A stretch of DNA of 64,000 nt from Candidatus Onthovivens sp. Lineage in GTDB: Bacteria > Bacillota_I > Bacilli_A > RFN20 > CAG-826. Made by a program: the position numbers and the translations under genes. Below are positions 10,636 through 58,505 of the stretch, piece by piece; position 1 is the first letter of the stretch, and each line of letters begins with the position of its first letter. The stretch covers positions 1,033 to 65,032 of the forward strand of contig DAIODM010000003.1 of the NCBI GenBank assembly GCA_036746835.1. Direction: 5' to 3'. The notes under the pieces are model-generated. The model saw only the letters and a list, made by a program, of their open reading frames with translations, was not told the origin of the DNA and ran no database searches.

Positions 10636-10679
10636 TTAAGATTCTTTATTTATCTTTGGTTTAATTGTAAAATATCTCC

Positions 10680-11234
10680 ATGAAATTAATTGTTGGTTTA
10701 GGTAATCCTGGAAAAGAATATGAAAAAACCCGTCACAATATGGGTTTTGAGACTGTTGATAAATTCGCAGATTCTTTAGGCATTAGTATTGATAAAGAAG
10801 ATTTTAAAGGATTATATATAAGAACTAAATATTTAGATAATGATTTAATTTTACTTAAACCTTTAACTTTTATGAATTTAAGTGGAGAAAGTGTTATTGC
10901 TGTTGCTAAATACTTTAAAATTGAACCAAAAGATATTTATGTAATTTATGATGAAATGGATTTTGATCCAGGCGTTATGAAAATTAAACTTGATGGAAGT
11001 AGTGCTGGTCATAATGGAATTAAATCTATTATTCAAAATTTAGGAACTGATAAATTTATTCATGTTCGAATCGGTACTGGAAAACCTACCTTTAATGCCG
11101 TAGATTATGTGCTTGGTAAACCATCAAAAGAAGATCGAGCATTAATTAATGAAGCTCAAGATCGTGCAGTTGAAGCGATTAAGTGCTCATTAAAAGAAAC
11201 GATTGGTAAAGCGATGTCGCTTTATAATAAATGA
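10680..11234 (+). CDS. pth: Peptidyl-tRNA hydrolase
   Basis: MKLIVGLGNPGKEYEKTRHNMGF and the GHNG motif. Conserved pth-mfd synteny. Confidence 0.95.
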   Translation: MKLIVGLGNPGKEYEKTRHNMGFETVDKFADSLGISIDKEDFKGLYIRTKYLDNDLILLKPLTFMNLSGESVIAVAKYFKIEPKDIYVIYDEMDFDPGVMKIKLDGSSAGHNGIKSIIQNLGTDKFIHVRIGTGKPTFNAVDYVLGKPSKEDRALINEAQDRAVEAIKCSLKETIGKAMSLYNK

Positions 11235-11248
11235 GGAAGTGATTATAT

Positions 11249-14200
11249 TTGATTGATTTAAAGAGTCTTGCTGTCAATGAATTTGTTACACCCCCTACTA
11301 AAAATAAAGTAGGGTATTTTGTCGTTGATCCATTTATTGGCACAACCTTTTTAACTCTTAAATTATATGAAGAATCTGGTGAAAACATTTTAATTTATTG
11401 TTCATCAAACTTTGAAGTTAATGAGACATATAATAGTTTATCTACTTTTATTCCAAAAGATAACCTTATTACTTTGCCTAGCGAAGAGCTTCTTCGAGTC
11501 GAATATTTAAGTGAATCAAAAGATTTATTAGCACAGCAAATTTATGGTTTATATAGTATTTTAAATGCTAAACATAAAGTAATTATTTTGTCTCCTGCCT
11601 CTTTATATAAATATTATCCTAGCAAAGAAACTTTTTTAGGTAGTTCATTAACTTTAGAAGTTGGAAAAGAATATAAATTTGATGATATAAAAAGAAAGTT
11701 AGCAGAAGCTTGTTATACGAAGGTTTCTAAAATTGATCAATCCTTAGAATACGCCATTAGAGGCGATATTATTGATGTTTTTAGTCTTAATTATGAAAAT
11801 CCAATTCGTATTGAATTTTTTGATGATGAAGTGGAATCGATTCGTGAATTCAATATCGCAACTCAAACATCTTTTAAAGAATTAAATAAAATAGATATCC
11901 TTCCAGCAAGTTTAAATTTATTAACTGAAGAAGAGAAATCAAAAGCAAAAGAAAAAATGCTTAAACGTTTAGAAGAAGATAAGGCGTTTTTAACTTCAGT
12001 TGCTTATAACGAATTAGTAAATCAAACGAACCAAGATATTGATGATCTTTTAAATAATAATTTATCTAGTAAATTTTATAAATATGTTGGATTTTTACAA
12101 AAAGAACACACAAGTATCCTTGAATTTATAAAAGATTATAAAATTATTGTTAATAATGAAGATGAATTCTTTAAGGCTCGTGATTTCCTTTTTGAAGAAG
12201 CTAATAGTTTTCTTTTTGACTTAAATAAGAATGGAAAAAGTATTAGTGGACTTTCTTATTTTAATAATAATATTAATGTTTTTAATGACAGTACTTTTGA
12301 ATATTTCTTAAATAATTTTTATCTTCACGATGGAAGTATAAATGTTAGTTTAACGACAAACTCCCTATATAGTACGAGGGATATTGACTTAACTCGACTA
12401 ATTGAAGTCTATAAAAATAGTGGATATAAAATATTAGCGTTAGTTGAAAATAAAGAACAAATTGAAAAAATCGAAAATACCATTAAGTTACTAAATTTAA
12501 CGTATTCTCTTAGTGATGGATTTATGCTTGATGAAAAGCGAGATATAAGTTTATCAATTAATTCATTTCCACATGGATTTGAATATAAAAATGAAAAATA
12601 TGTTGTTTTAACAAGCAAAGAACTATTTGGTTTTAGACGAAATGCCTCAACATATAGTTCAAAATTCCGTGAAGGAATTATTCTTGAAAGTTACCAAGAT
12701 CTTGAACCTGGTGATTATGTTGTTCATGAAAAAAGTGGTATTGGTAAATTTGTTAAAATTTCAACTTTAGAAATTGATGGAAAGCATGAAGATTATCTTC
12801 AAATTCAATATGATGGTGGAGATGTTTTATATGTTCCACTTTATCAATTTAACATGGTTAGAAAGTATGTTGGCAAAGATGGTTATGCCCCTAAACTTAA
12901 TCGACTTTATACTACTAAATGGGAAAATACTAAGAAAAAGATTAAAGAAAGAATCAATGATTTAGCAGAAAGATTGATGACTCTTTATAGTGAAAGAGCG
13001 CAAATAAAAGGATACGAATTCAAGCCTGAAAAAGAGCTTGAAGATGCTTTTGCTCGTGAATTTGATTATGAATTAACGAAAGATCAACAATCTAGTTTAA
13101 ATGATATATATAAGGATATGGAATCGACTCATCCAATGGATCGATTACTTTGTGGTGATGTTGGATTTGGTAAAACGGAAGTTGCTTTTAGGGCAGCATT
13201 TAGAGCGATTTTAAACGAAAAGATGGTAATTTTATTATGTCCAACAACCTTACTTGCTCGTCAACATTACGAAGTTGCTTTAAAGCGTTTTAATAAATTC
13301 GATGTGCGAATTGCTCTTTATTCAAGGATGCAATCCCCTCAAGAAGCAAAAGCAATTGAGGAACAGGTAAAAGCGGGAAAAATTCATCTTTTAATTGGCA
13401 CGCACAAAGCTCTTAGTAAGAAATTAGATACTAGCAATCTAGGTTTATTAATAGTTGATGAAGAGCAACGTTTTGGCGTTGAACAAAAAGAAAGAATTAA
13501 AGAAAGAAGCAAGGGAATTGATGTTTTAACCCTTAGTGCAACGCCTATTCCAAGAACACTTCAATCGTCTCTTGTTGGTTTAAAACAAGTTTCCACAATC
13601 GAAACTGCACCAAAGGAAAGAGTTGCGATTCAAACTTACGTTATTCCATATGATCAAAATGTTGTTCGTGAACTTATTAAACGTGAACTTTCGCGACATG
13701 GACAAATTTTCTATGTTCATAATGAGATTGCAACGATTTATTCAGTTTACGATAAATTACAGGCTTTAGTTCCAGAATGTAAAATTGGTATTGTTCATGG
13801 AAGAATGGATAAAGAAGAAACAAATGCAGTTATGCAGGACTTTTATGATGGGAAAATTGATTTATTGTTAGCTACTTCTATTATTGAAAATGGAATCGAT
13901 GTTGAAAACGCTAATTTAATGTTAATTGAAAATGCGAATGCTTTTGGTCTTGCACAACTTTATCAAATTAAAGGAAGAGTTGGTAGAGGAGATAGAATGG
14001 CTTTTGCATATTTAATGATTAATAAAAATAAAGAAATTGATGAAGCAGGTCAAAAGCGATTAGAGGCAATTCAAGATTTAACTGCTCTTGGTAGTGGATA
14101 TAAAATTGCTCAACGTGACCTTTTAATTAGGGGTGCTGGGGACATATTAGGTCCTGAACAAGCGGGATTTATCGATGCAGTTGGTATTGATATGTATATT

Positions 14201-32787: not shown

Positions 32788-33152
32788 GGGGATGTCTTGG
32801 TTTCGACATATGTTCGCAGGGCATAGAGTGCAAGTCGCTTGGAAACGTTATATTCCAAAAAAATATAATTGCCAATAATCGACAATTCGCATTTGCTGCC
32901 TAGTTGCAGCCGACTTAGTTTCGCTCTTAAATAAATAGAGAGTGCGCGGATCTTACTTACTTCGCTTCTTACGAGTAAAAATCCGTCATAACAAGAAGAT
33001 AAGTAATGACTATGATTATGTGTCATTAACGAAAAAATTATAATCTAGCGTGTGAAAATTTGTGTCGTTTGCTAGCACGCAAAAATAAAAACGTACACTA
33101 AACTTGTAGAGTTTATGTGTGGCGACATATGGACCGGGGTTCAACTCCCCGC
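32788..33152 (+). ncRNA. ssrA: tmRNA (transfer-messenger RNA)
   Basis: 5' GGGGATGTCTTGGTTTCGACA. 3' GGACCGGGGTTCAACTCCCCGCATCTCCACCA (T-arm plus acceptor plus CCA). Internal tag reading frame ..GCC AAT AAT CGA CAA TTC GCA TTT GCT GCC TAG = ..ANNRQFAFAA*. Confidence 0.93.
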
Positions 33153-33217
33153 ATCTCCACCAGAATAAGTTATTTTTGATAAATATGGTCTTGAAAACTT
33201 ATTAACTTTAAAAAACA

Positions 33218-46770: not shown

Positions 46771-46798
46771 ATAAATAGAATGCGAGAATTTACTATTC

Positions 46799-46827
46799 TT
46801 GACATTTCTTATAAAAAAAGTAATATT
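46799..46827 (+). promoter_or_regulatory. Promoter of the first fibre-subunit gene
   Basis: TTGACA-N16-TAATAT, preceded by TTAC as in the two promoter-like copies at 47443 and 47622. Confidence 0.5.
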
Positions 46828-46885
46828 CAAGGCAAGAAGATAATTTTTTTAAATTACCTTAAAAAACGGAAAGGAGACTAAAATT

Positions 46886-47398
46886 ATGAAGAAAATCGCT
46901 ATAGTTTGTGGTATTGCTGCTGTTTTAGTCGCTTTATCTGTTACCTCGGTTTTTGCTAAATATTCAACTGACGTTGATACAAATGCAAACGCGAGTGGAA
47001 ATAATTTCGTTTTCACGGCTGATGAAACTTACTCAGTTAATGGTGCAGTTAAGATTGCTCCAGGTGAAACTCAAGAGGTTGCTGGATTTAAATTAAGCAA
47101 TTTAAGCGAAAGCGTTGCTAATAATGTAGATGTTGATGTTACTACTAATGTGAATTTCTCTTTAGTTAAAGAATTACCAACTGGTGATTCATTGACATAT
47201 GCTTTTTATGATCATTCAGGCAATTTGCTTAATAAATCATTTACTTTAGGCCATACTTCAAGTGATCGAACCTTAGAAGTATCCTTATATATAACTTGGA
47301 AAGATAGTTCAATAGATGGATCAAGTGAACAAGCGGCGTTAGCTGGACAAAATCTTGGTCAATATTACTTAACATTCATTGGAACACAATCGAAATAA
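46886..47398 (+). CDS. Secreted protein with SipW-cognate-type signal peptide (TasA/BsaA-like matrix subunit candidate), paralog 1
   Basis: AGGAGA SD. Signal peptide ending ..SVTSVFAKYSTDVD. Paralogous to 47776-48303 (shared F.FTA..TY, K[IL]AP.E, GDSL, [FL][IV]GTQ). Confidence 0.75.
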   Translation: MKKIAIVCGIAAVLVALSVTSVFAKYSTDVDTNANASGNNFVFTADETYSVNGAVKIAPGETQEVAGFKLSNLSESVANNVDVDVTTNVNFSLVKELPTGDSLTYAFYDHSGNLLNKSFTLGHTSSDRTLEVSLYITWKDSSIDGSSEQAALAGQNLGQYYLTFIGTQSK

Positions 47399-47424
47399 TC
47401 AGAGTTAAATCTCTGATTTTTTTG
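47397..47424 (+). terminator. Intrinsic terminator after paralog 1
   Basis: AATCAGAG-ttaaat-CTCTGATTTTTTT. Confidence 0.8.
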
Positions 47425-47442
47425 TGTTTTTTTTCGAATTAC

Positions 47443-47470
47443 TTGACAACTTTTATAGATTTAGTATGAT
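47443..47470 (+). promoter_or_regulatory. Promoter-like element, copy 1 (TTACTTGACAAC module)
   Basis: TTGACA-N16-TATGAT. The 13-mer TTACTTGACAAC is repeated at 47618-47630. Confidence 0.45.
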
Positions 47471-47621
47471 TATTGAACAATTCAAGTGTTAACTTGAGTT
47501 GCGAAGTTAGTAAGATGGCATTATCGTTTGACAAAAATTAAATTTTTATCAAAAAAAGTAATGCAAAAAGTGCAGACTGTAGGCTTATAATTTGATGAGA
47601 TTACTGGTTTTGCGATTTTAC

Positions 47622-47650
47622 TTGACAACATTTACAGAGAGTAATATATT
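47622..47650 (+). promoter_or_regulatory. Promoter-like element, copy 2, immediately upstream of the riboswitch
   Basis: TTGACA-N17-TATATT. Confidence 0.5.
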
Positions 47651-47656
47651 GTAAGT

Positions 47657-47722
47657 GAGCAAAGTATCCGCGAGGATATGACGCAAAACTAAAGGGTCTT
47701 AAAATTACTAAGATAGCCAGCT
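47657..47722 (+). promoter_or_regulatory. Class I c-di-GMP riboswitch aptamer (GEMM-I-like)
   Basis: GAGCAAA-GUAUCC-GCGA(GNRA)-GGAUAU-GACGCAAAAC-UAAAGGGUCUUA-aaauuac-UAAGA-UA-GCCAGC. It matches the GEMM-I hallmarks GCAAA, a GNRA-capped P1b stem, GACGCAAA, GGGUCU, a second stem with a UA bulge, and AGCC. Confidence 0.75.
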
Positions 47723-47752
47723 GCATTAAAAAATAATGGGCTGGCTTTTTTG
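47715..47752 (+). terminator. Riboswitch expression platform: intrinsic terminator overlapping the aptamer 3' strand
   Basis: AGCCAGC-UG-CAUUA-aaaaa-UAAUG-G-GCUGGCU followed by U6. The downstream CCAGCC (47755-47760) can pair alternatively with GGCUGG. Confidence 0.7.
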
Positions 47753-47775
47753 TTCCAGCCAAAGGGGAAATATTT

Positions 47776-48303
47776 ATGAAAAAAGGATTATTAATTGCCG
47801 GTGCTAGTGTCTTATTATTATCAGGTTTAGCTGCTGGTGTTTTTGCACGTTACCAAACAAGTGTTGATGCTGCTGCTGGTCAAATCAGCTCAAAGCAATT
47901 CGCATTTACTGCTGCTGCTACATATGATACAACAGCTGATTTCAAATTAGCTCCAACCGAGAGTAAAACTGTTGGTACTATTAAAGTTAGTAACTATGAT
48001 GCAAATGTTACTTCTGAAGTTGCTATTAAAGTTAATTTAACTTATACAATCAGTGGAACATTATTTGATGAAATTAAAAAGATTAGTGGTGATTCATTAG
48101 TCTTCCAAGTTAAGGATGGTGCTAATGTTCTTGCTACTGGTTCAGATGTCGTTACATTCACTGCTGGTACTAAACAAGATAAGACTTTAACTCTTGTTGC
48201 TACCTGGAATGGTGATGCTAATGGAAATAGTGCTGAAACTGCTTTAGCTAACAAAGGTTATACTGCTAATTACAAAGTTACCTTAGTTGGTACACAAGCC
48301 TAG
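47776..48303 (+). CDS. Secreted protein with SipW-cognate-type signal peptide (TasA/BsaA-like matrix subunit candidate), paralog 2
   Basis: AAAGGGGA SD. Signal peptide ..LAAGVFARYQTSVD. 175 aa. Ends VTLVGTQA. Confidence 0.78.
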   Translation: MKKGLLIAGASVLLLSGLAAGVFARYQTSVDAAAGQISSKQFAFTAAATYDTTADFKLAPTESKTVGTIKVSNYDANVTSEVAIKVNLTYTISGTLFDEIKKISGDSLVFQVKDGANVLATGSDVVTFTAGTKQDKTLTLVATWNGDANGNSAETALANKGYTANYKVTLVGTQA

Positions 48304-48341
48304 TTGTTATTTCTTTTTAGAAAAAACAAAAATGTTATATA

Positions 48342-48375
48342 ATGGGAATGGGGTTTTACCCATTCCCATTTTTTA
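48342..48375 (+). terminator. Strong intrinsic terminator after paralog 2
   Basis: ATGGGAATGGG-gtttta-CCCATTCCCATTTTTT. A TATAAT box (48338-48343) abuts its 5' arm. Confidence 0.8.
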
Positions 48376-48381
48376 AACGAT

Positions 48382-48993
48382 ATGAGTAAAGATAATAAAA
48401 ACAAAATGAGTGATAATGATGCAGCAAAAGAAGTTGCTGTAACCACAGAAGGTGATGCTACTCCAGAGAGTAGTACTGCTTATCCTAGTGGCGATATTGG
48501 CCTTCTTTATAAAGAATGCGATGAATATAATTCTCCAGCTGCAATTAAGAAAAGAAATTCCAATCATTTTTGGAAGGTTTTTGGTGATATTGTTTTTACT
48601 ATCATTATGGGTGTTTTATGTTACGCAATTGTTATGGTAAATTTAACAAAACAAAATGGTCAAATTCCATTTATTGCAGGATATAGTTTAGAATATGTCG
48701 AAACAGGTTCTATGGAACCTACTTTACCTACTGGATGCGTAATTTTAGCAAAACAAAAAGATAATAATACAGTTGTAAATGTTGGTGATATTATTACTTT
48801 TTATGAAGGATATGATCGAAGTACTGAAGCTCCAAGCAATCGTGTAAGAGTTACTCATAGATTATATGCTGAAACAATAGCGGATGATGGAACAATTTGG
48901 TATACCACTAAAGGTGATAACAATAATGCTCCTGATCAATATCAAATATTATATGAAGATATTATAGCGACTTTTGTTAGGAGACTTTTTTAA
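48382..48993 (+). CDS. sipW: Signal peptidase I, ER/archaeal (SipW) type
   Basis: TGSMEPTLPTG (Ser), VTHRL (His) and TKGDNNNAPD (Asp). An acidic cytoplasmic extension of about 60 aa precedes the single TM. Confidence 0.85.
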   Translation: MSKDNKNKMSDNDAAKEVAVTTEGDATPESSTAYPSGDIGLLYKECDEYNSPAAIKKRNSNHFWKVFGDIVFTIIMGVLCYAIVMVNLTKQNGQIPFIAGYSLEYVETGSMEPTLPTGCVILAKQKDNNTVVNVGDIITFYEGYDRSTEAPSNRVRVTHRLYAETIADDGTIWYTTKGDNNNAPDQYQILYEDIIATFVRRLF

Positions 48994-48995
48994 AT

Positions 48996-50078
48996 ATGCC
49001 ATACAAAACAAAAGCTCCTATTAAGGAAGAAACAAAAGAAGTAGAAGAAGTTGCTACTCGTGGTAGCAAATTTTTTGATGACACTAAGAAAATTAATTTA
49101 GATAATGCTTCTATTGTTGTTCATAATTTAATAAGTTGTGAACATTCTAAGAAAATGGTTGATGGGAAAGAAATTTTAACTCCATTTTTAAGTAATATCT
49201 CGCTTGTTATTGAAAAAGGTGAAGTTTGTGGAATTAGTGCTGAAAATAAAGATGAATTAAGTGTTTTAATCGAAATCTTAGGTAATATGCGTCCATATTA
49301 TAAAGGATTTGTGAAACTAACAAATCTTGGTACAAGTAGTTTTAAACGAGCAATTCTTGATTATATTTTCTATATTGATAGTCATAAGATGGTTTATGAT
49401 GATATGACTTTAATTGAACAATTAATGCTTATTACTATTATGAGTAATAAAGATAAAAAAGCTAATTATGCTAACCTTGAAAAAGGTGTTTTAGATGACA
49501 TTATGGCTTGCCACTTAGAAGACCTTGTTAATGTAAAAATTAAGGCTTTAAGTGTCTCAACAAAGATGGTTATTGCAATTATGGTTGCATGTATGTCTAA
49601 TAGTGAAAAAGTCATCATAAATGCCTCCAATTACACTTTTACTCAAACAGATTGCGATAGAATTAACCATATTTTTGATTATTTTAAAGGGAAGAAAACT
49701 ATCGTACTTGGAACCTTACAATCTAAATTAATTGGTATGTGCTCAAGTCACGTAATTTATCTTGTTCATGGTACTGTTAAAGTTGATTGTTCAATTACTG
49801 AACTCTATGAAAAATGGGATAAAGTTATTTGTAGTATAAGTTGTGATGATCCAAATAGATTATGCGATTTAATTAAAGCTAAATTTAAAGGCACATCTAC
49901 TGGAATTCTTGATGGAGTAATTTATCTAAAAAATTATGGAGACTCAATTGTTTCTTATAATGATTTATATGATTTAAGCACCGAAAATAAAATAAATTTA
50001 AAATTTATTCGCTTTAATAGTGGTCGAGCAGAAAATGCTTTTAACGAAATAAAGGAGACATTCAATGATATATACTAA
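48996..50078 (+). CDS. ABC-ATPase-like protein with degenerate catalytic motifs (pseudo-ATPase)
   Basis: NBD-like order is conserved, but Walker A is GISAENKDELS, the signature position reads LSVSTKM, and the Walker B position reads VIINAS. Confidence 0.65.
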   Translation: MPYKTKAPIKEETKEVEEVATRGSKFFDDTKKINLDNASIVVHNLISCEHSKKMVDGKEILTPFLSNISLVIEKGEVCGISAENKDELSVLIEILGNMRPYYKGFVKLTNLGTSSFKRAILDYIFYIDSHKMVYDDMTLIEQLMLITIMSNKDKKANYANLEKGVLDDIMACHLEDLVNVKIKALSVSTKMVIAIMVACMSNSEKVIINASNYTFTQTDCDRINHIFDYFKGKKTIVLGTLQSKLIGMCSSHVIYLVHGTVKVDCSITELYEKWDKVICSISCDDPNRLCDLIKAKFKGTSTGILDGVIYLKNYGDSIVSYNDLYDLSTENKINLKFIRFNSGRAENAFNEIKETFNDIY

Positions 50079-51537
50079 AGATTATACTGATCAAGAAATG
50101 TCTAAATCCACTTTAAGTGGCGATGGAAATAAATGGAGAATATATGTTTATTGTATTCTTTGTGTTTTGGTCTCGGTTGTTTTAACTCTTCTTTTAAATT
50201 CACTTGATTCTACTATCGTTTCTGAGGCTTTACCTACTTTTACTGGTGCAAACGCTAAGAGTAGTTTTGCTCTTTTAACTTTTTTAGCTCCAATCATTAT
50301 GTTATTTACGATTGGTTACTATTTCGGTAATTATCAAAACTTTACCTTTGCTGAATTGCACACTAATAGAATGTATATGCTAATTAAGATGGGCGCCAAG
50401 ATGAAACAAGTCATTTTGCTACGTATTTATAGTGCCCTTTCTTTACCATTATTCTTATATGCAATTTCCTTTATTATTTCTGTATTTACTTGTCTTCTTT
50501 TTAATTATTCAATTAATATTTTAGCAATGCCTGGACAATTCTTGGCAGGAGTCATAATTATTGTTTTAATTACGATGATTATTCTTACTTTATCTTTATT
50601 CTTTTATAACGAGAAGTATGCAATATTAGCCTTTATTGGTGTTGCTCTTTTAATCATTGCTCTTGGAGTTTTAACGAATTTTACAAACGTCATTCAAGCA
50701 TCAATTAATGTCTCTAATTTAGGAGTTATGTTCGGTGGAGCGACTGGATATTTCTTATTTATATGTTTAGGTTTAATTGTTGTTTGCTTTGTGATTTCTT
50801 TAGTTCGTTCATTTAATTTAATTAAATATTATTCAACTATTAAGGAAACAATCCCTGGAATTGTTGTAATTGATTATAGTAAAAATGTCGTTAAAGCAGT
50901 TAAAAAAGATAATAGTGCTAAAAAGGAAAAAATCTTTAATGGCACGATTATGACTATATTTATTGCGTTTGTTGCAATCTCTTTTGCAACAAATCTTTTC
51001 TTAATTTATATGGCGACAAATAACCTTGAATCGCAATCTTTATATAATAATTACGTTCCAATTATTTTTGGTAGTGAAACAATGAGGCAAGGTGATAGCG
51101 AAGTTGATTCAACGCTTTCTTATCCTCAATTTATTGAAAAGAACGATTTAGCTGTTTTTGAAAATACTTCTAATCAAGATATTAATATTAATGTTGGTAA
51201 CGTTATTTACTACATTAATAGCGATACAAGTAGTGCTGTTATTGTTAAAGTTAAATTAATCGATAGTGATGGATATCATGTTGATGTTACTTATTATCCA
51301 AATCAAGAAGATGCTGGTACCCTTGCAACTACCTTAACTCGTACACAAATTAAAGGAAGACTTGTTTATGTTAACCGTGTAGTTGGAGCATGGGTTACCT
51401 TAAATGATGCAGTTATTGGTAAAATTGTTTTCTTAGTTATTCCATTATTCATAATTATTTTCTATGATAAGATTAGAAAATTTAATAAAGCTTATAAAAC
51501 AATTGAGGATAAAGATTTAGAAGAAAAGAAGAAATAA
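50065..51537 (+). CDS. Polytopic membrane protein (ABC-2-permease-like N-terminal half) with a C-terminal TM/SipW-like domain/TM module
   Basis: About 6 TM, then a TM, a domain alignable by eye to the adjacent SipW (IIFGSETM vs ETGSMEPT; VGNVIYY vs VGDIITF; QIKGRLV), and a final TM. Overlaps the upstream gene by 14 nt. Confidence 0.6.
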   Translation: MIYTKDYTDQEMSKSTLSGDGNKWRIYVYCILCVLVSVVLTLLLNSLDSTIVSEALPTFTGANAKSSFALLTFLAPIIMLFTIGYYFGNYQNFTFAELHTNRMYMLIKMGAKMKQVILLRIYSALSLPLFLYAISFIISVFTCLLFNYSINILAMPGQFLAGVIIIVLITMIILTLSLFFYNEKYAILAFIGVALLIIALGVLTNFTNVIQASINVSNLGVMFGGATGYFLFICLGLIVVCFVISLVRSFNLIKYYSTIKETIPGIVVIDYSKNVVKAVKKDNSAKKEKIFNGTIMTIFIAFVAISFATNLFLIYMATNNLESQSLYNNYVPIIFGSETMRQGDSEVDSTLSYPQFIEKNDLAVFENTSNQDININVGNVIYYINSDTSSAVIVKVKLIDSDGYHVDVTYYPNQEDAGTLATTLTRTQIKGRLVYVNRVVGAWVTLNDAVIGKIVFLVIPLFIIIFYDKIRKFNKAYKTIEDKDLEEKKK

Positions 51538-53499
51538 ATGAAATACCGAACAAAAGTAATTTTACGAAGAATAGCTTTGGCATTTTCAATAATACCATTG
51601 CTTTTTATTGCTGGTTTTTCATTATATCTTTATCTTTTTAAAGTAGAGTTTGATACTAATTTACTTTATATAATTGTCATTTGCTCTAGTTTATTTGCAA
51701 TGGTTATGGGTATCTTCTCAGTTATTTTAAGTTTAAATAAATTAAATGAAAAATATCTTGCTTTATATCGACCAATTTCTGAACTTGTTAGTACCTTTCT
51801 TTTTTCTTACGATCTTAACGAAAAGAAAGTTCATCTTAATAAACATTTAGCAAAATTTATTAATGCTCCTAGTGAAGTATTAACGGTTGATGAGATGCGT
51901 AAATTATTTACGGATGCTGATAATGTAGTTATTCGTTATGATGATTTAGTTCTTAATGGGTCAAGTTATATTAAAGTTCACGCAAAAAATGGTAAATATG
52001 TAGCGTTTAGTTTCTTTGCTAATAAGTATAAAGGTAAAAAATATGTCGTTGGTTATGTAAATGATTTTACGCTTGAATATATTGAGGAACAAAGTTTGCT
52101 TAAAGCTGCTCACCTTGATACATTAACTGAAACTTATCGAAGAAGTTACTTTGTTAAAAATGTCAAAGATAAACTCGAAAACACTAGTGAAAAAGGTGCT
52201 CTTATTTTTATGGATGTCGATAATTTTAAAGGAATTAATGATAAATATGGTCATTCAAGTGGTGATATTGTCTTAATGAAATTAGGCAACTGTTTAAAGA
52301 ATTTTTGCAAAGATAAGAAAGCCTATATTGCACGAAGTGGTGGCGATGAATTCCTTCTTTATTTTTATGATGTAGTTGATTATAGCGACGTTTATGAGTA
52401 TTTAAAGGGACTCGTATATGCAATTAAAACAATTTCTATACCTGATATTGGTTTAAAGCAAATTTATGTTTCAATGGGTGTTTCTTTCTTCCCAATGCAT
52501 AGTAATAATTATGAAGCATTGCTTAAATATGCGGATGATTCCTTATATAGAAGTAAAAGCATTCCTGGAACTGCTTTTACAATTTATGACGAAGATAAAA
52601 TCAATAATGAACTCAATATGGGCAACAAAAATGAGTTAACCAAAAAAGGTATTAAGGTTGAAAAAGATATCTTTAGCGGGCTTTCTCTTGGCGAAGTCGA
52701 ATCCTTATTACGTAAAGCTTTAATAAATCATGAATTCCAAGTTTATATTCAACCAGAAGTTTCTCCATCTGGAAAATCCTTAAAAGGAGAATGTCTTGTT
52801 CGTTGGATTTCTAAAGAAAATGGAATTATTTATCCAAATGGATTCGTACCTTATTTTGAACGAACTGGTTTAGTAAGTGAATTTGATTTTTATATGTTTA
52901 ATGAAGTTTTAGGAATTAGCCAAAAGTATATTAAAAAAGATAGCGATATTAAAATTGCGGTTAATCAATCAATTAAAACAATGGTCGATCCAAATTATGG
53001 TGATCGCATAAAAGAAATTTATAATAAATATCATATTGTTAGAGGAAGTGTTGCAATTGAATTAACTGAAAAAGCAATGTTCACTGGCTTAAGACACATT
53101 AGTAAAGCAATTGATTTATTTCACTCTTTAGGAATGAATATTTTAATTGATGATTTTGGTACTGGATTTACTTCGCTTCAAGTAATAAAAGATATGGATA
53201 TTGATGTTATCAAAATTGACCGTTCTTTCTTATCAAATCAACAAAATGATTTTGCTCGTTGTGAAAAAATAATTAAAGGAATAGTTGATTTAGCACACTC
53301 TTTAAAGATATCGACTATTATTGAAGGTATTGAAAGTGAAGAACAGTTTAAGATAGCAATTCGAACGAATGCTGATTATATTCAAGGTTTTATTTTCTCA
53401 TCTGCAATTCCAGTTGAAGCTTTCTTTAAAGATAAATCTAGTGAGTCTTTCCAAAGACAATTAAAAGAACTTATTAATTCGAGTGAAAAAACAAAGTAA
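51538..53499 (+). CDS. Membrane-anchored GGDEF-EAL protein (diguanylate cyclase/phosphodiesterase)
   Basis: 2 TM plus a sensor-like region. GGDEF intact (ARSGGDEFLL). EAL-domain motifs ECLVRW, NQS, ELTE, DDFGTG, KIDRSF, EGIE, QG. The start codon directly abuts the upstream stop (TAAATG). Confidence 0.9.
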   Translation: MKYRTKVILRRIALAFSIIPLLFIAGFSLYLYLFKVEFDTNLLYIIVICSSLFAMVMGIFSVILSLNKLNEKYLALYRPISELVSTFLFSYDLNEKKVHLNKHLAKFINAPSEVLTVDEMRKLFTDADNVVIRYDDLVLNGSSYIKVHAKNGKYVAFSFFANKYKGKKYVVGYVNDFTLEYIEEQSLLKAAHLDTLTETYRRSYFVKNVKDKLENTSEKGALIFMDVDNFKGINDKYGHSSGDIVLMKLGNCLKNFCKDKKAYIARSGGDEFLLYFYDVVDYSDVYEYLKGLVYAIKTISIPDIGLKQIYVSMGVSFFPMHSNNYEALLKYADDSLYRSKSIPGTAFTIYDEDKINNELNMGNKNELTKKGIKVEKDIFSGLSLGEVESLLRKALINHEFQVYIQPEVSPSGKSLKGECLVRWISKENGIIYPNGFVPYFERTGLVSEFDFYMFNEVLGISQKYIKKDSDIKIAVNQSIKTMVDPNYGDRIKEIYNKYHIVRGSVAIELTEKAMFTGLRHISKAIDLFHSLGMNILIDDFGTGFTSLQVIKDMDIDVIKIDRSFLSNQQNDFARCEKIIKGIVDLAHSLKISTIIEGIESEEQFKIAIRTNADYIQGFIFSSAIPVEAFFKDKSSESFQRQLKELINSSEKTK

Positions 53500-53512
53500 T
53501 TTTGTTTTTTGT
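53485..53512 (+). terminator. Weak A/U-rich terminator after the GGDEF-EAL gene
   Basis: AAAAACAAA-gtaa-TTTTGTTTTTTG. Confidence 0.4.
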
Positions 53513-53552
53513 TGATATACGATAGTTTATAATAATCGTCAGGAGGTATCTT

Positions 53553-54527
53553 ATGATTACTCTTTATAAAACTGAAAAAAACAAATTAGTGACGATTAAA
53601 AAAGGTGATGTTTTACCGTTATTTAAGAGTGGTATTTGGATAGATATCTCTTCACCAACTCCTGAATTACTTTTAACGATATCTAAAAGAACGAAGATTC
53701 CATATGACTTTTTAGCTACTTCGTTAGATCCTGAAGAAAGTGGTCGTGTTGACACTGAAGGAAATAACACCCTTATTGTTTTAGATGTCCCAGTTGAAAT
53801 TAATATGGAAGATAAGAATCATTTAGTATATGAAACTTCACCTTTCATTATTGTTTATAACTCAAATGTTTTTATTACTCTTCATAGAGAAGATATTCAT
53901 TTAGCAGAGTTAATGGCCAGTAAAACTAAAATTGTCGAAACTAATAAGCACGTAAGAATGTCTCTTCATTTTTTCATGACTCTTGCTCAACAATTTATTA
54001 CTGATTTAAAAAATATTGATAAAGAATCACGAGAGATTGAAACGAAACTTCATTCTTCACAAAAGAATAAAGAGTTATTTGAATTAATGGCATTAAATAA
54101 AATGCTCGTTTATTTTTCAACTGCTTTAAATGCAAACAAAAACGTAATTGAAAAACTTAAACGAAGCAAAGAATATAATAAATATGAAGATGATTTTGAT
54201 TTAATTGAAGATGTTCAAGTTGAAATGAACCAAGCAAATGAAATGTGTTCTATTTATCGAGATATTTTAGCTGGTATGATGGATGCTTTTGCTTCTATTA
54301 TTTCTAATAACTTAAATATTGTTATGAAGACTTTAGCAATTATGACAATTGCCATTAGTTTCCCAACTTTAGTTGCTTCATTTTATGGAATGAACGTAAA
54401 TATAAATAGTATGCCTCTTGCACAAGATTCAAATGCTTTTTGGATCATTATTTGTATTTCTTCTATAATTGCTATTCTTATTGCAATTGCCTTATTTATC
54501 TTCGATAGTTTAAAGAAGAGACATTAG
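53553..54527 (+). CDS. corA: CorA-family Mg2+/Co2+ transporter
   Basis: YGMNV motif between two C-terminal TMs. AGGAGG SD. Confidence 0.9.
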   Translation: MITLYKTEKNKLVTIKKGDVLPLFKSGIWIDISSPTPELLLTISKRTKIPYDFLATSLDPEESGRVDTEGNNTLIVLDVPVEINMEDKNHLVYETSPFIIVYNSNVFITLHREDIHLAELMASKTKIVETNKHVRMSLHFFMTLAQQFITDLKNIDKESREIETKLHSSQKNKELFELMALNKMLVYFSTALNANKNVIEKLKRSKEYNKYEDDFDLIEDVQVEMNQANEMCSIYRDILAGMMDAFASIISNNLNIVMKTLAIMTIAISFPTLVASFYGMNVNINSMPLAQDSNAFWIIICISSIIAILIAIALFIFDSLKKRH

Positions 54528-54554
54528 TCTTTTTAAGAAAATAAGTGGTTATAT

Positions 54555-54597
54555 ATGGACTTTTTCAAAATAAAAGTCCATTTTTTTAATGGACTTT
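54555..54597. terminator. Three-arm bidirectional terminator
   Basis: ATGGACTTTT..AAAAGTCCAT-T7-ATGGACTTT. The middle arm can pair with either flank, so it serves both convergent genes. Confidence 0.8.
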
Positions 54598-55807
54598 AGA
54601 ATTTAATAGTTATTTTGAAAAAGGTATTTTCTTTACTATCAACGGTGATTGAATAATTGTATTTATTACAAATTTCTTTAAGAATAGCAAGACCTAAACC
54701 AGACCCTTGTTTTGCTTCTCCATCACGAGATATTTCATCACGATAGAATCTATTAAATATCTTGTCTCTTTCTCCATCTTTAAGGGTACATCCTGAATTA
54801 TATACAGATAAATAGGTTCCTGTTTTATCTTTAAGTAAAGTTACATTTATTATTCCTTTAGCAGTAACATATTTAACAGCATTATCGATTAAAATTTTAG
54901 TGATTTTTTCTACATCTTTTTTGTTGCCTTTAATAGTAATTTCATCTTGAATATTGGTCACATATTCGATATTGTCTTCAAAACAAACCGCATCAAAAGC
55001 GAGAGCAACATTATTAATTGCATCAGTGAGATCGAAGTTATCAATAATAGATTCTTTTTCTTCAACACTAGCAAGACTTATCATATCAAGAATAAGACCA
55101 TTCATATTTTTTGTTTCATTTAAAATATTATTAACCCATTTATTGTCTTCACTTCCGTTTTTTAAAATAGAAGCATTAGCATCAATAATAGTTAAAGGGG
55201 TTTTTAATTCGTGGCTTGCATTACTAATAAATTCTTTTTGTGATTTTTGCGCTTCTTGAATTGGTTTAAGAATCATTCTACTGAGCCAAAAAGAGATTAA
55301 AAAGACAAGAAGTGTACCTCCAAGCAAAGCGAAACTTGAGGTTAAAATCGTGTTACGAATTGAAGTTTGCTCGATTGAACGATCGCATCCAGCAATTAAT
55401 TTATATGATGAGTAATCGGCACTTTTAAAATAAATATAACCTACGTTTCCACTTGTATTTGAGTAAAGATAGTCTAAATTAGTGGTGACAAAATCACTAT
55501 ATACTTCGGTTCCTAATTTATAGGTAACAGTTTTGCTTGAGTCTACTTTAATGACGAAACCTCTTTGGTGATCAAAATCGCCTTTACCAAATCCAGTGTT
55601 TTCTCCAACACTAGAATCATCTTCATTACTCTTTAAAATCATCTGGTTTAGTTGATTATTTATTTGATTATTTTCATTAATAATTAAATAAGAAGAATAT
55701 CCTATTTCAAGACCAATAAAAAGAACAGCAACAATGCCAGTTGTCATCGAAATAATTTTTCTACGAGTTTTTCTAATTAATTTTTGATCTTTACTTATCG
55801 TTTTCAT
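54596..55807 (-). CDS. Sensor histidine kinase
   Basis: 2 TM with an extracytoplasmic loop. H-box SHELKTPL. G-box GSGLGLAI. Confidence 0.9.
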   Translation of the reverse strand: MKTISKDQKLIRKTRRKIISMTTGIVAVLFIGLEIGYSSYLIINENNQINNQLNQMILKSNEDDSSVGENTGFGKGDFDHQRGFVIKVDSSKTVTYKLGTEVYSDFVTTNLDYLYSNTSGNVGYIYFKSADYSSYKLIAGCDRSIEQTSIRNTILTSSFALLGGTLLVFLISFWLSRMILKPIQEAQKSQKEFISNASHELKTPLTIIDANASILKNGSEDNKWVNNILNETKNMNGLILDMISLASVEEKESIIDNFDLTDAINNVALAFDAVCFEDNIEYVTNIQDEITIKGNKKDVEKITKILIDNAVKYVTAKGIINVTLLKDKTGTYLSVYNSGCTLKDGERDKIFNRFYRDEISRDGEAKQGSGLGLAILKEICNKYNYSITVDSKENTFFKITIKF

Positions 55808-56471
55808 ATTCTAACTTATATCCTAAACTTCTAATTGAAGTGATAATTACTTTACTATGCATAGCTTTTAATTTTCGTCTTAAAAATGAAATATAAACTT
55901 CAACACTATTATATAAAGTATCGCTATCATAACCCCAAATTTTAACAGTTAAAAACTCTTTATTTACTTGGTTTGGAAATTTATCCATTAGCATATCAAG
56001 TATTTCAAATTCTTTTTGTCCAAGAATAATTCGATTATCTTTGCAAGTTAATTCATGATTATCACGATTCAAAGTAATATCAAAAACTGTCTTTACATTA
56101 AGTTTAATTTCTTCTTTTCTACGTGATAAAGCTTTAACACGAGCATCTAATTCTCTTATAGCAAATGGTTTTGCAAGATAATCATCAGCTCCTAAATTTA
56201 AACCTTTAACTTTATCATCAATTTCTCCTAGCGCACTTAAAACAAGGACTGGAGTATCAATATGTTCTTTTCTTAAATCGTTTAAAATACTCCATCCATC
56301 TTTTTTAGGAAGCATTATATCTAAAATAATAACATCATAAGTGCCACTTAAAGCTTCAAGATAACCTTTTTCGCCATCGTTAGCGATAGTGATAGGAACT
56401 TGTTCTCTTTTAAAGTATTCAGCAACCGCATCAGTTAAGGATACCTTGTCTTCAATCATTAATAATTTCAT
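55791..56471 (-). CDS. OmpR-family response regulator
   Basis: Start placed at the internal Met (MKLLMIEDK..., about 56471). Receiver Asp in IILDIMLP. Winged-helix C-terminal domain. Overlaps the kinase gene by 17 nt. Confidence 0.9.
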   Translation of the reverse strand: MKLLMIEDKVSLTDAVAEYFKREQVPITIANDGEKGYLEALSGTYDVIILDIMLPKKDGWSILNDLRKEHIDTPVLVLSALGEIDDKVKGLNLGADDYLAKPFAIRELDARVKALSRRKEEIKLNVKTVFDITLNRDNHELTCKDNRIILGQKEFEILDMLMDKFPNQVNKEFLTVKIWGYDSDTLYNSVEVYISFLRRKLKAMHSKVIITSIRSLGYKLEYENDK

Positions 56472-56576
56472 GACTATATTATAGATTAAGAAAAATAGAA
56501 TTTGAGAAATTTCGATATTTTTCAAGGGTTCTTTAAGGTTTCGAGAATATAGTTTAGGCATAAGGAGAAATCTTTT

Positions 56577-58505
56577 ATGAAGAAATTTACTAAAAATAAA
56601 AAGAAGGGATTAATGTTTTTAGGGCTTTCTCTCGTTGCTTTATTAACAGCTTGTGGAGCTAATTCTTCTACTAGTGGAAGCAGCGCAACAAATGTAAATA
56701 CTGATGATAGCGATAGCCAAGATATTCCTGATGAAAAAGATACGACTGGTGAAGGAACTGCTATCACTGATGAAACAAGCACAACTGAATCAGATGAAGA
56801 AAAAATTAGTACAATTCCTACAACAGCAACTGAAATTAAACTTGTAGATGATGGAACAATTGCAGGAACTGGCTATGAAGTTGATGGAAATGTAATTACT
56901 ATTATTAGCGATGGAAGTTATGCATTAACAGGCACATTATCCAATGGATTTATTGTCGTTAAGAAAAACGTCTTTGCTCATTTATATTTAAATGGCGTTT
57001 CAATTACTTCTTTAACAGGTTCTCCTCTTATTTTTAAAAAGGATACAACTCATGATTATCCAAGCGTTATAACTCTAGTTGAAGGATCAACAAATACTTT
57101 AGTTGATGCTAATTTAGCAACTTACACAAGTGGCGATTTAGATGATGATGGAACATATGCAAATAACGCAACTTTCTATGCTAAACGTAGCGTTTCTATT
57201 AATGGAACAGGAACTTTAAATATTAAATCTTATTATCATGAAGGTGTTCATATTAAAGGAGATGCAACTGTATTAGATGGAAATATTGTTGTTGATTCTT
57301 ATGATCATGGTTTTAAAGGAGACGATAATATTTATTTCTTAGGTGGTACGGTTGATATTACAAGTAGTGCAGGTGATGGAGTTAAAACTGAGGAACCAGA
57401 TGAAGGCGATGCTTATGATGCATCTTTATATAACGCCAAATTTGGTGCAGTAAATTTAACAATTGATGCGAAATATGATGGAATTCAAGTTGAAAACAGC
57501 ATCTTATTTGATGGTGGAGTTTATAACATTACAACTTATGGCGGTTTAAAGAATAGATCAACCTATGAAAAAGATTATGAATATGATGATAATGGAAATG
57601 TTGTCTATGAAGATGGTGAAGCTCAACTTGTAAGTGCAAAAAGTATTAAAACAAGTTACGATTGGACAAGCTCGATGGTTGATGGATATTCTAGTATTTA
57701 TGTAAAGAGCGGAACATTCGTAATTGATGCTGTAGACGATGCTTTCAATGCTAATAATGCCTTAATTATTGATGGTGGAACCTTTAATATTCAAGCTGGA
57801 GATGATGGAATGCATGCTGATAATGTCTTTACCTTTAATGATGGCACTATTAATATATCTTTATCTTATGAAGGACTTGAAGCAAGTAATATGAATTTTG
57901 TTGGTGGTACTGCTACGGTTTATGCAACAGATGATGGAATAAACGCAAGCGATAAACATACATCAGTTGCCGATGGACAATATGATAGTACCTGCCAAAT
58001 GTACTTTAATGGATCAACAATTTATGTTAGTGCTGAAGGTGATGGAATTGATAGCAATGGTACCGCACAATTTAATGCTGGCGTTGTAACTGTTGAAGGG
58101 CCAACAAATGGAGGTAATAGTGCTATTGATACAAATGGTGGCTACGTTATTAATGGTGGAACTATTATTGCAGCAAGTGCTGTAGGTATGGTTGAAAATC
58201 CAAAGAGTAATGGAACACAATATAGCGCAACCTTAAGTGCAAGTATTACTAAAGGAACAGTGGTTAAATTCACTGATAATGATGGAAATGAAATCACTTC
58301 ATATACTGCAACTAAAAATGGTGGTTGTGTAATGCTTTCTAGTAATCTATTAAAGTTAAATGGAACTTATAAATTATATTTAAATGGAACTTTAACTACG
58401 ACTTGGACTCAAGATTCTTTGGTCTTCTCTAACGTTTCAACACAAAATGGAATGGGTGAAGGTCAACCTGGTGGTCAAGGTCAACCTGGTGGCGGAAGAT
58501 TCTAG
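56577..58505 (+). CDS. Secreted lipoprotein with periodic beta-helix-like repeats (carbohydrate-binding DUF4353-like)
   Basis: Lipobox LLTAC. Recurring [DG]DG[IMV]x[AS] units (GDGVKTE, YDGIQVE, DDAFNAN, DDGMHAD, DDGINAS, GDGIDSN). GQPGGQGQPGG tail. Divergent from the TCS. Confidence 0.65.
   Translation: MKKFTKNKKKGLMFLGLSLVALLTACGANSSTSGSSATNVNTDDSDSQDIPDEKDTTGEGTAITDETSTTESDEEKISTIPTTATEIKLVDDGTIAGTGYEVDGNVITIISDGSYALTGTLSNGFIVVKKNVFAHLYLNGVSITSLTGSPLIFKKDTTHDYPSVITLVEGSTNTLVDANLATYTSGDLDDDGTYANNATFYAKRSVSINGTGTLNIKSYYHEGVHIKGDATVLDGNIVVDSYDHGFKGDDNIYFLGGTVDITSSAGDGVKTEEPDEGDAYDASLYNAKFGAVNLTIDAKYDGIQVENSILFDGGVYNITTYGGLKNRSTYEKDYEYDDNGNVVYEDGEAQLVSAKSIKTSYDWTSSMVDGYSSIYVKSGTFVIDAVDDAFNANNALIIDGGTFNIQAGDDGMHADNVFTFNDGTINISLSYEGLEASNMNFVGGTATVYATDDGINASDKHTSVADGQYDSTCQMYFNGSTIYVSAEGDGIDSNGTAQFNAGVVTVEGPTNGGNSAIDTNGGYVINGGTIIAASAVGMVENPKSNGTQYSATLSASITKGTVVKFTDNDGNEITSYTATKNGGCVMLSSNLLKLNGTYKLYLNGTLTTTWTQDSLVFSNVSTQNGMGEGQPGGQGQPGGGRF

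Follow-up and report, generated by a model that had tools for sequence, protein, structure and literature searches.

The window, by which we mean the whole 64,000-nucleotide (nt) stretch of DNA from Candidatus Onthovivens sp. (contig DAIODM010000003.1) analyzed here, contains at 46886-53499 on the forward strand a cassette of six co-directional open reading frames (ORFs), placed at the predicted coordinates of the ORF list, that encode two small secreted proteins (called subunits below), a SipW-type signal peptidase, a degenerate ABC-ATPase homolog, a 490-amino-acid (aa) membrane protein with an inactive SipW-like domain and a GGDEF-EAL enzyme. A riboswitch for cyclic diguanosine monophosphate (c-di-GMP) lies ahead of the second subunit gene. 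Our reading, to which we give a probability of roughly 55%, is that the cassette serves the c-di-GMP-induced processing and deployment of a small secreted beta-sandwich protein, which most probably self-assembles as the subunit of a matrix or fibre. We are highly confident of the identities of the parts; these identities, the conservation of the parts together, the competing RNA structures of the riboswitch and the complementary loss of anchor and catalysis in the two SipW-like proteins are directly supported.

An earlier note on this DNA, made from the sequence without database searches, had described these six genes with their junctions, motifs and riboswitch, and all of them are present in their places (ORF list, Rfam). 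The claims that the locus encodes secreted proteins of one common signal-peptide type beside a dedicated SipW-type peptidase (ORFs, TIGR02228), that this peptidase is of the endoplasmic reticulum (ER)/archaeal type with Ser, His and Asp motifs, that a catalytically degenerate ABC-ATPase homolog and a second, inactive SipW-like domain follow, and that a real c-di-GMP-I (GEMM-I) aptamer stands before the second subunit gene were likewise borne out, the inactive domain at the level of its protein family. The peptidase gene is separated from the 360-aa pseudo-ATPase gene by a 2-nt gap, the 360-aa and 490-aa genes overlap by 14 nt, and the TAA stop codon of the 490-aa gene abuts the ATG of the 653-aa GGDEF-EAL gene. 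Guanine-plus-cytosine (GC) content is uniform, with 26-33% in the locus and flanks alike, and a horizontal-transfer island was rejected because there is no shift in it. Coordinates are collected in Table 1, where a slash in a signal peptide marks the putative cleavage site.

Table 1. Features of the cassette, in positions of the window.
Feature	Coordinates	Strand	Details
Promoter-like site TTGACA-16-TAATAT, before paralog 1	46799..46826	+	consensus match alone
Subunit paralog 1, 170 aa	46886..47398	+	signal peptide ..SVFA/KYSTDVD; without riboswitch; subunit-family hidden Markov model (HMM) E 6e-54
Intrinsic terminator after paralog 1, 8-bp stem + U7	47397..47425	+	z -4.0
Promoter-like site TTGACA-17-TATATT (11/12)	47622..47650	+	would start transcription at the aptamer 5' edge
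c-di-GMP-I (GEMM-I) aptamer	47648..47728	+	Rfam RF01051, 48.2 bits vs gathering score 35
Expression platform, 13-bp terminator hairpin + U-run	47715..47752	+	5' arm GCCAGCUG = 3' strand of aptamer P2
Riboswitch-gated subunit, 175 aa	47776..48303	+	signal peptide 1-24 (..GVFA/RYQTSVD); C-terminal ..VGTQA
12-bp hairpin + U-run between subunit gene and SipW gene	48341..48377	+	z -5.4
SipW/ER-archaeal-type S26 signal peptidase, 203 aa	48382..48993	+	TIGR02228 76.7 bits vs cutoff 51.85
Pseudo-ABC ATPase, 360 aa	48996..50078	+	nucleotide-binding domain (NBD) fold + ~110-aa C-terminal domain
490-aa membrane protein	50065..51537	+	N-terminal transmembrane (TM) domain, basic linker, TM helix, extracellular pseudo-SipW (S26), C-terminal TM helix
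Membrane-anchored GGDEF-EAL protein, 653 aa, two TM	51538..53499	+	PF00990 1.4e-28, PF00563 1.2e-53

Synteny of the cassette is kept in L001, L005, L006, L008 and L009, five relatives of the window that are metagenome-assembled genomes (MAGs) named "Bacilli bacterium", and the genes for SipW, the pseudo-ATPase and the 490-aa protein occur together in five further contexts with different flanks (L014, L015, L016, L019 and L020), four of which have subunit genes and three of which (L014, L016 and L020) have a riboswitch directly before the subunit gene. Members of the subunit family are found by its HMM in each of these contexts, L015 being the one exception, and in no other part of the DNA that was scanned. 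Checked for conservation of its gene neighbourhood, the cassette is thus kept in unrelated genomic contexts. L014 (a Bacillota MAG, 34% identity) has the order riboswitch, subunit, SipW, pseudo-ATPase and TM/pseudo-SipW protein, and the same order is found in L016 (24% identity); in L020 two larger proteins of the same signal type are placed between SipW and the pseudo-ATPase; and in L019 SipW, the pseudo-ATPase and the TM/pseudo-SipW protein are followed by three subunit paralogs.

Larger proteins are found beside several of these cassettes. In L014 a second c-di-GMP-I riboswitch (65.4 bits) comes right after the cassette and before a 416-aa secreted protein without a family match (11745-13134), which is possibly a second c-di-GMP-controlled cargo. 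The two proteins in L020 (4203-6007) have 295 and 301 aa, one of them matching LRR_5, with a signal end ..A[VI][YF].., and a 503-aa secreted protein upstream of the L016 cassette (4085-5596) has a similar end. The three subunit paralogs of L019 are followed by an 809-aa repeat protein with Pro/Thr linkers that has no such signal end (8788-14147), and a sortase gene lies upstream of that cassette on the opposite strand. All assemblies of one related species (L006, L007 and L010-L013) break at the 5' end, either just upstream of the SipW or pseudo-ATPase gene or within it; because this is where the subunit genes are expected, it suggests that the subunit genes of that species are strain-variable or repeated.

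The catalytic boxes of the peptidase, GSMEP (Ser), THRL (His) and KGDNN (Asp), are invariant in six orthologs. The protein aligns to positions 3-117 of the 158 in TIGR02228 and to positions 2-125 of the 189 in the Bacillus SipW equivalog model NF046067 only, for which it scores 91.3 bits, under the cutoff of 190, and all six orthologs terminate at ..ATFVRRL. From these partial matches and common ends the peptidase is, as judged by its sequence, an enzyme with intact catalytic boxes whose C-terminal anchor region, as present in the family models, is gone, and the truncated SipW is also found in all five unrelated contexts. At its other end (residues 1-60, window 48382-48560) the peptidase has a cytoplasmic N-terminal extension of about 60 residues with the conserved motif LY[KRN]EC.[ED]YN[ST], which reads LYKECDEYNSP in the window and is also present in L014 and L015 (LYEEVDRYNSP and LYREVNEYS). 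The pseudo-ATPase, on the cytoplasmic side, might dock here.

The counterpart of the truncated enzyme is the 490-aa protein. When the window protein is analyzed alone it matches no Pfam or NCBIfam family and no SipW-like domain is detected in it; it was assigned to its family by full-length alignment (24-65% identity) and not by a SipW-model match of its own. A scan of contigs with a 13-sequence alignment of the family gave 3 loci, and an exhaustive HMM search showed the family to comprise 91 clusters at 50% identity (E<=1e-10 for 74), so that the very small family indicated by word-indexed searches (6 relatives, and 3-8 for the subunit) was rejected. The C-terminal domain matches the SipW model NF046067 in 32 of 50 aligned full-length members, and hhalign of the deep family profile against the local SipW orthologs gives a probability of 87% (E 3.9e-6) with S.TM.P aligned on GSMEP; BLASTP of SipW against the 490-aa protein gives E 0.09, and hhalign with a shallow 6-sequence profile a probability of 16%. 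SEC11C, SEC11A, SipA and LepA, and no others, are the PDB matches of the family profile. The Ser column holds Thr in 40 and Ser in 5 of the 50 members; the His column holds His in a single member (Glu in 16, Ala in 7, Arg in 6, and others in the rest), and the Asp column is not conserved. The window protein has T339 at the Ser column and V/K at the His column. The dead domain therefore keeps a Thr within the conserved S.TM.P box with the His lost, a pattern that looks like selection for a binding function and not like random decay. In the N-terminal half we find about six predicted TM helices and a conserved loop, TFAE..NR.Y.L.K.G, between helices 2 and 3. The permease-like label of the earlier note stands in part: ABC2_membrane_2 is matched by 2 of the 50 members (best 6.4e-5) and ABC2_membrane_4 by 1 of 50, which lends weak support to an ABC-2-permease-like N-terminal half, but the window protein itself matches neither. 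Members of the 490-aa and subunit families are called hypothetical proteins in the named source records, and no curated Pfam or NCBIfam model is passed by either family.

The pseudo-ATPase shows a similar loss of catalytic residues. Its family profile matches NBDs in the PDB (Wzt, TagH/TarH, MacB, LolD and others), with a best E of 2.7e-10 for the ABC-2-type Wzt and TagH/TarH domains, and the NCBIfam ABC matches of the window protein are weak (1.8e-6 at best). In the window the Walker A motif GxxGxGK[ST] reads GISAENKDEL, the signature LSGGQ reads LSVSTK, Walker B (hhhhDE) reads VIINAS and the H-loop His is missing. The four motifs are degenerate in eight of eight orthologs (30-62% identity), among which this degenerate state is itself conserved but the Walker Lys is not, and the distant homologs of L016, L019 and L020 have degenerate motifs as well.

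The riboswitch accompanies the subunit gene across loci. In L001, L005, L008, L009, L014, L016 and L020 the ortholog of the subunit gene is likewise immediately preceded by a c-di-GMP-I aptamer, with scores of 52-67 bits, and because aptamers above the gathering score recur upstream of subunit orthologs, chance cannot explain their placement. In the window the P2 3' strand GAUAGCCAGCU (47712-47722) overlaps the 5' arm of the 13-bp hairpin (47715-47746) that precedes a U-run; as the strand is shared, aptamer and terminator are mutually exclusive. The same overlap is present in L001, L005, L008, L009 and both L014 riboswitches, and among these orthologs the upper terminator stem varies in sequence with its pairing preserved. 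Such an arrangement is the usual design of an ON switch, the mode of control that we predict for the window clade and L014. The 12-bp hairpin after the subunit gene is a probable leaky terminator, and equivalent hairpins follow the subunit gene in L001, L005, L009, L014, L016 and L020.

Several further signals were observed in the non-coding parts of the locus. The arms of the 12-bp hairpin, GGGAAUGGG and CCCAUUCCC, are kept in L001, L005 and L009, and in L008 the gene caller began SipW within the hairpin. No Shine-Dalgarno sequence precedes the SipW ORF, which starts a few nt past the U-run of this hairpin (48316-48393), and a promoter-like TTTAGA-16-TATAAT ends immediately 5' of the hairpin. 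Directly 3' of the subunit-1 terminator there is a near-consensus promoter-like TTGACA-16-TATGAT (within 47443-47560, forward strand), and the roughly 150 nt of non-coding DNA before the riboswitch promoter include an AT-rich palindrome, tttgacaaaaatt/aaatttttatcaaa. It may function as a tandem promoter or an operator, or it may encode a small RNA.

The two subunit paralogs are 32-36% identical, depending on the alignment, and each begins with MKK and a hydrophobic stretch followed by ..VFA[KR]Y[SQ]T.VD. An AlphaFold2 (AF2) model of the 175-aa subunit, built from 8 sequences, predicts for the mature part of about 150 aa a beta sandwich of 8-9 strands with two short helices (residues 37-175, predicted local distance difference test (pLDDT) about 85-90); confidence is low for residues 1-36, and the N-terminal segment is nonetheless conserved. 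The earlier note had called these proteins TasA(BsaA)-like, a label that the searches suggested in that note do not support. TIGR04088, the model of the SipW-cognate signal, matches none of 12 subunits at E<=10; PF12389 (Peptidase_M73, TasA/camelysin) matches neither window subunit at E<=1 and one of the 12 family members at E 0.17; and TIGR04090 (BsaA) matches no window subunit, its sole match in the family being the weak one of the L016 subunit (16.6 bits against a cutoff of 60, E 0.005, residues 7-84). Foldseek was negative too, its best matches being generic sandwiches or jelly-rolls at a TM-score of about 0.3 (FlhE at 3.9e-3, phiX174 G protein, Ena2A at 0.011), and the family profile finds nothing below E 0.1 among PDB sequences. 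What is left is one weak profile match, by hhalign, to a TasA sequence that was checked against PDB 8AUR (probability 31%, E 5.2e-4, 82 columns). It spans the signal peptide to the third strand, that is, TasA's N-terminal half, and has in register GVFA/KY with GTWA/AF, KiAPGE with NLKPGD, ftv.N with FQFEN and SEVdI with KEVLM; by eye, the C-terminal ..F.F.GTQA is also like ..FSFEATQ of TasA. It is possible that the subunits are members of the TasA superfamily. Because no TasA, BsaA or signal model is passed and the TasA match is weak, we infer, and do not observe, that they polymerize into fibres. Among other assignments, a SAVED (Pfam) match of subunit 2 was rejected as spurious (E 0.0012, 19 bits, under the cutoff and in 1 of 12 members), and a lipoprotein signal and a type IV prepilin signal were rejected by eye, as there is no lipobox Cys and no G/F...E motif.

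The mechanism that we propose begins with c-di-GMP bound to the GEMM-I aptamer, in which state helix P2 would hold the strand GCCAGCU and transcription would read through into the 175-aa gene; without c-di-GMP this strand would form the 5' arm of the intrinsic terminator. The second hairpin, after the 175-aa gene, would restrict read-through into the machinery genes, and the unregulated 170-aa paralog may act as a minor or priming subunit. The pre-subunit would leave by Sec and the adjacent Ser/His SipW-type peptidase would cut it after VFA, exposing the conserved [KR]YQTSVD.., which is unstructured in the monomer model and in register with the TasA donor strand, and which would itself serve as a donor strand like the N-terminus of TasA (PMC9674648). 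The anchor-less SipW, the anchored dead SipW/ABC-2-like protein and the dead ATPase would form one membrane complex, where the pseudo-enzymes would dock the peptidase and/or hold the substrate and so provide a non-catalytic platform for processing and assembly. It is the loss of the anchor in the enzyme together with the loss of catalysis in the anchored copy that argues for a physical association of the pair with the peptidase. The earlier note had also suggested an assembly platform made of the pseudo-ATPase and pseudo-peptidase; both proteins proved to be non-catalytic and conserved, and the platform role is our interpretation as it was that of the note. A stronger version, which we hold to be rather unlikely, is an obligate hetero-oligomeric signal-peptidase/assembly complex, a bacterial counterpart of the eukaryotic signal peptidase complex, that would have arisen by SipW duplication and complementary degeneration and would couple the cleavage of a new, minimal TasA-superfamily subunit directly to donor-strand polymerization under the control of the c-di-GMP riboswitch. 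There are precedents in the inactive signal-peptidase homolog SipA, which is required for pilus polymerization (PMC4049620), and in archaea, where dedicated S26 peptidases occur with filament subunits of 150-200 aa (PMC11821415).

A number of observations weigh against our reading of the cassette as a c-di-GMP-induced system for a fibre subunit. On the side of the product, no curated Pfam or NCBIfam family is passed by either window subunit or by the 12 family members, Foldseek of the subunit model against the PDB gives no match at E<1e-3 and does not list TasA (5OF1 and 8AUR) among its top 50, the signal-end motif G[TV][FL]A[KRV]Y resembles the SipW-cognate class by eye alone, and the VFA cleavage site would equally fit a housekeeping signal peptidase. 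On the side of the machinery, modelling of the 490-aa protein by AF2, with 6 sequences, reached a pLDDT of no more than 39.5, and L015 has the three machinery genes alone, with no subunit or riboswitch on its 11.5-kb contig. On the side of control, the L019 cassette is without a riboswitch, L016 and L020 show no clear terminator overlapping the aptamer, so that an ON design is not evident there, the class I c-di-GMP riboswitches of C. difficile are mostly OFF switches (PMC6200980), and the GGDEF-EAL gene adjoins the cassette in the window clade only (the window, L001, L005, L006, L008 and L009).

The last of these points bears on the wiring of the system. In the window clade only, the co-directional GGDEF-EAL enzyme may set a local level of c-di-GMP, and the earlier note had proposed that the cassette is gated by c-di-GMP from its own operon-encoded enzyme; the aptamer and the GGDEF and EAL domains are real, but the adjacency of the enzyme, being confined to one clade, is weak ground for that proposal. 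We give a chance somewhat short of even to the alternative that the wiring is one-way, with the riboswitch reading the cell-wide c-di-GMP pool and the GGDEF-EAL gene a syntenic neighbour in a single clade. No GGDEF-EAL gene is found beside the cassette in L014, L015, L016 or L019 (the L020 contig ends just after the cassette), the clade members that have it also share all their flanking genes, with a HAD hydrolase gene upstream and a histidine kinase/response regulator pair downstream, and the relatives have intergenic gaps of 11-75 nt. Against this, the gene has the orientation of the cassette in all members of the clade and follows it without a gap in the window, and both of its domains look catalytically competent and conserved: the window protein has an intact SGGDEF without an RxxD I-site, its EAL motif reads ECL with the other EAL catalytic motifs present, and 6 orthologs share [SC]GGDEF, E[CS]L, DDFG.G, EG[IV]E and QG[FY].

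A less probable alternative accepts the same cassette with a product that does not polymerize. The subunits would then remain monomers and serve, at high c-di-GMP, as BslA-like or lectin-like proteins of the surface or coat or as adhesins, and the larger proteins taken to share their signal in L014, L016, L019 and L020 would be further cargo; we consider this alternative unlikely. It fits the lack of a significant sequence or structure match between the subunits and known fibre subunits, the common control of adhesins by c-di-GMP riboswitches (PMC6200980, PMC6366702) and the non-homologous neighbours of 295-809 aa in L020, L016 and L019, those of L020 and L016 with a similar signal peptide. 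It does not fit the characterized substrates of SipW and other dedicated S26 peptidases, of which those of a like size that are cited here are all polymers (PMC7395162, PMC9674648, PMC11821415). The self-assembling subunit of our own reading is further favoured over a monomer by the N-terminal segment in register with the TasA donor strand, by the several small paralogs in the window, L001 and L019, and by a layout of the major-subunit type, with its own terminator and a high-expression ribosome-binding site.

Least probable of all, and in our view quite unlikely, is that the pseudo-ATPase and the permease/pseudo-SipW protein are a regulator, either a decoy or gate that would control cleavage by binding the pre-subunit or SipW, or a membrane sensor relaying the state of the envelope or matrix to the GGDEF-EAL enzyme: the two proteins combine strong conservation with a lack of catalytic residues, in the window the stop codon of the 490-aa gene runs straight into the start of the GGDEF-EAL gene (TAAATG) and ABC-like modules act as sensors in Bacillota (BceAB-type), but the pair is kept in the four contexts in which no GGDEF-EAL gene adjoins it, it is always accompanied by SipW, and the complementary loss of anchor and catalysis favours a physical complex with the peptidase.

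Outside the cassette, the DNA on its 3' side (53553-58505) carries a CorA-like ORF, found in the window only, a histidine kinase/response regulator pair that is divergent, and the gene for a lipoprotein of the Cthe_2159 family. Several relatives of the clade, L001 and L009 among them, also have the kinase/regulator pair and the Cthe_2159 gene downstream. A complete tmRNA gene is present at 32788-33162 on the forward strand of the window (Rfam RF00023, 156.5 bits).

SipW-dependent TasA and BsaA are the paradigm of protein scaffolds in Gram-positive biofilms, and the coupling of cleavage to assembly at the membrane is poorly understood in them. The cassette offers a natural dissection of this step, with a live peptidase that has lost its anchor on one side and, on the other, an anchored dead copy carried on a transporter-like module with a dead ATPase, and the three machinery proteins are conserved together across many uncultured Bacillota. 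A full-text literature search found no paper in which a c-di-GMP riboswitch is tied to SipW or to a signal peptidase, so that the link described here is apparently the first in the literature searched, and it adds a further class I aptamer that is predicted to be an ON switch. If the subunits polymerize, at about 150 aa they would be the smallest TasA-like building blocks in bacteria so far, of use for structural work and for engineered living materials.

Among the known systems, the tapA-sipW-tasA operon of B. subtilis is controlled by SinR/SlrR, whereas the cassette is regulated by a c-di-GMP riboswitch. The operon likewise places a dedicated ER/archaeal-type peptidase beside a secreted beta-sandwich substrate (TasA fibres, PDB 8AUR; PMC9674648), and the likenesses between TasA and the cassette subunit extend to a signal end of small-aromatic-Ala type (GTWA/AF in TasA, GVFA/RY in the cassette), to the N-terminal segment and the PGD/PGE and F.F.N strands, which are in register, and, by eye, to the last strand (..ATQ/..GTQ). 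TasA has 234 aa against the roughly 150 aa of the mature cassette subunit, and the cassette is without TapA, adds the pseudo-ABC ATPase and the permease/pseudo-SipW protein and has a SipW that lacks the C-terminal anchor. The sipW-bsaABCRSD operon of C. perfringens (BsaA polymers; PMC7395162) also combines SipW with a small secreted matrix protein, and it has a terminator after bsaA with a read-through transcript downstream, which parallels the hairpin at 48341-48377. In the cassette, unlike this operon, the subunit precedes sipW and the accessory genes encode membrane pseudo-enzymes in place of the secreted BsaB/C/D and a two-component system; control in C. perfringens is by temperature and the two-component system, with no riboswitch. 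As the earlier note had supposed, the pseudo-enzyme pair is missing from both of these described operons (PMC7395162).

The closest likeness for the dead peptidase domain is SipA/LepA of S. pyogenes (PMC4049620; PDB 4N31 and 4K8W), an S26 fold without catalytic residues whose gene belongs to a fibre locus and which assembly requires. SipA is free-standing, of the bacterial type (Ser/Lys lineage) and part of a sortase pilus locus, whereas the dead domain of the cassette is of the ER/SipW type, is fused to an ABC-2-like domain and occurs with a dead ATPase and a live SipW. The eukaryotic signal peptidase complex (SEC11A/C; PDB 7P2P and 7P2Q) has a catalytic subunit of the same Ser/His type among non-catalytic membrane partners, an arrangement that the cassette proteins would share if they form the complex proposed above. 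SEC11C and SEC11A are also the best PDB matches of the dead domain, and no likeness of its partners to SPC1, SPC2 or SPC3 was seen, although no search aimed at it was made. For the regulation, the c-di-GMP riboswitch leaders of pilA1, CD2831 and CD3246 in C. difficile (PMC6200980, PMC6366702) likewise turn on a surface-fibre or adhesin gene at high c-di-GMP; these ON switches are of class II, and their cargo is a type IV pilin or sortase-anchored adhesins, not a SipW-type substrate. The gene clusters of archaeal donor-strand filaments (tafi with TafA/TafD, threads, bundling pili; PMC11821415, PMC9715654) combine a dedicated S26 peptidase, beta-sandwich subunits of 150-200 aa, often as several paralogs, and membrane proteins, but in haloarchaea they depend on Tat, a DUF5305 protein (TafG) takes the place of the ABC-like pair, and there is no riboswitch. 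A dedicated SipW-type peptidase with a secreted matrix protein, and the control of surface structures by c-di-GMP riboswitches, are thus known already; what is new in the cassette is that it has a pair of accessory pseudo-enzymes, a truncated peptidase and a minimal subunit and that it is wired through a predicted class I ON switch.

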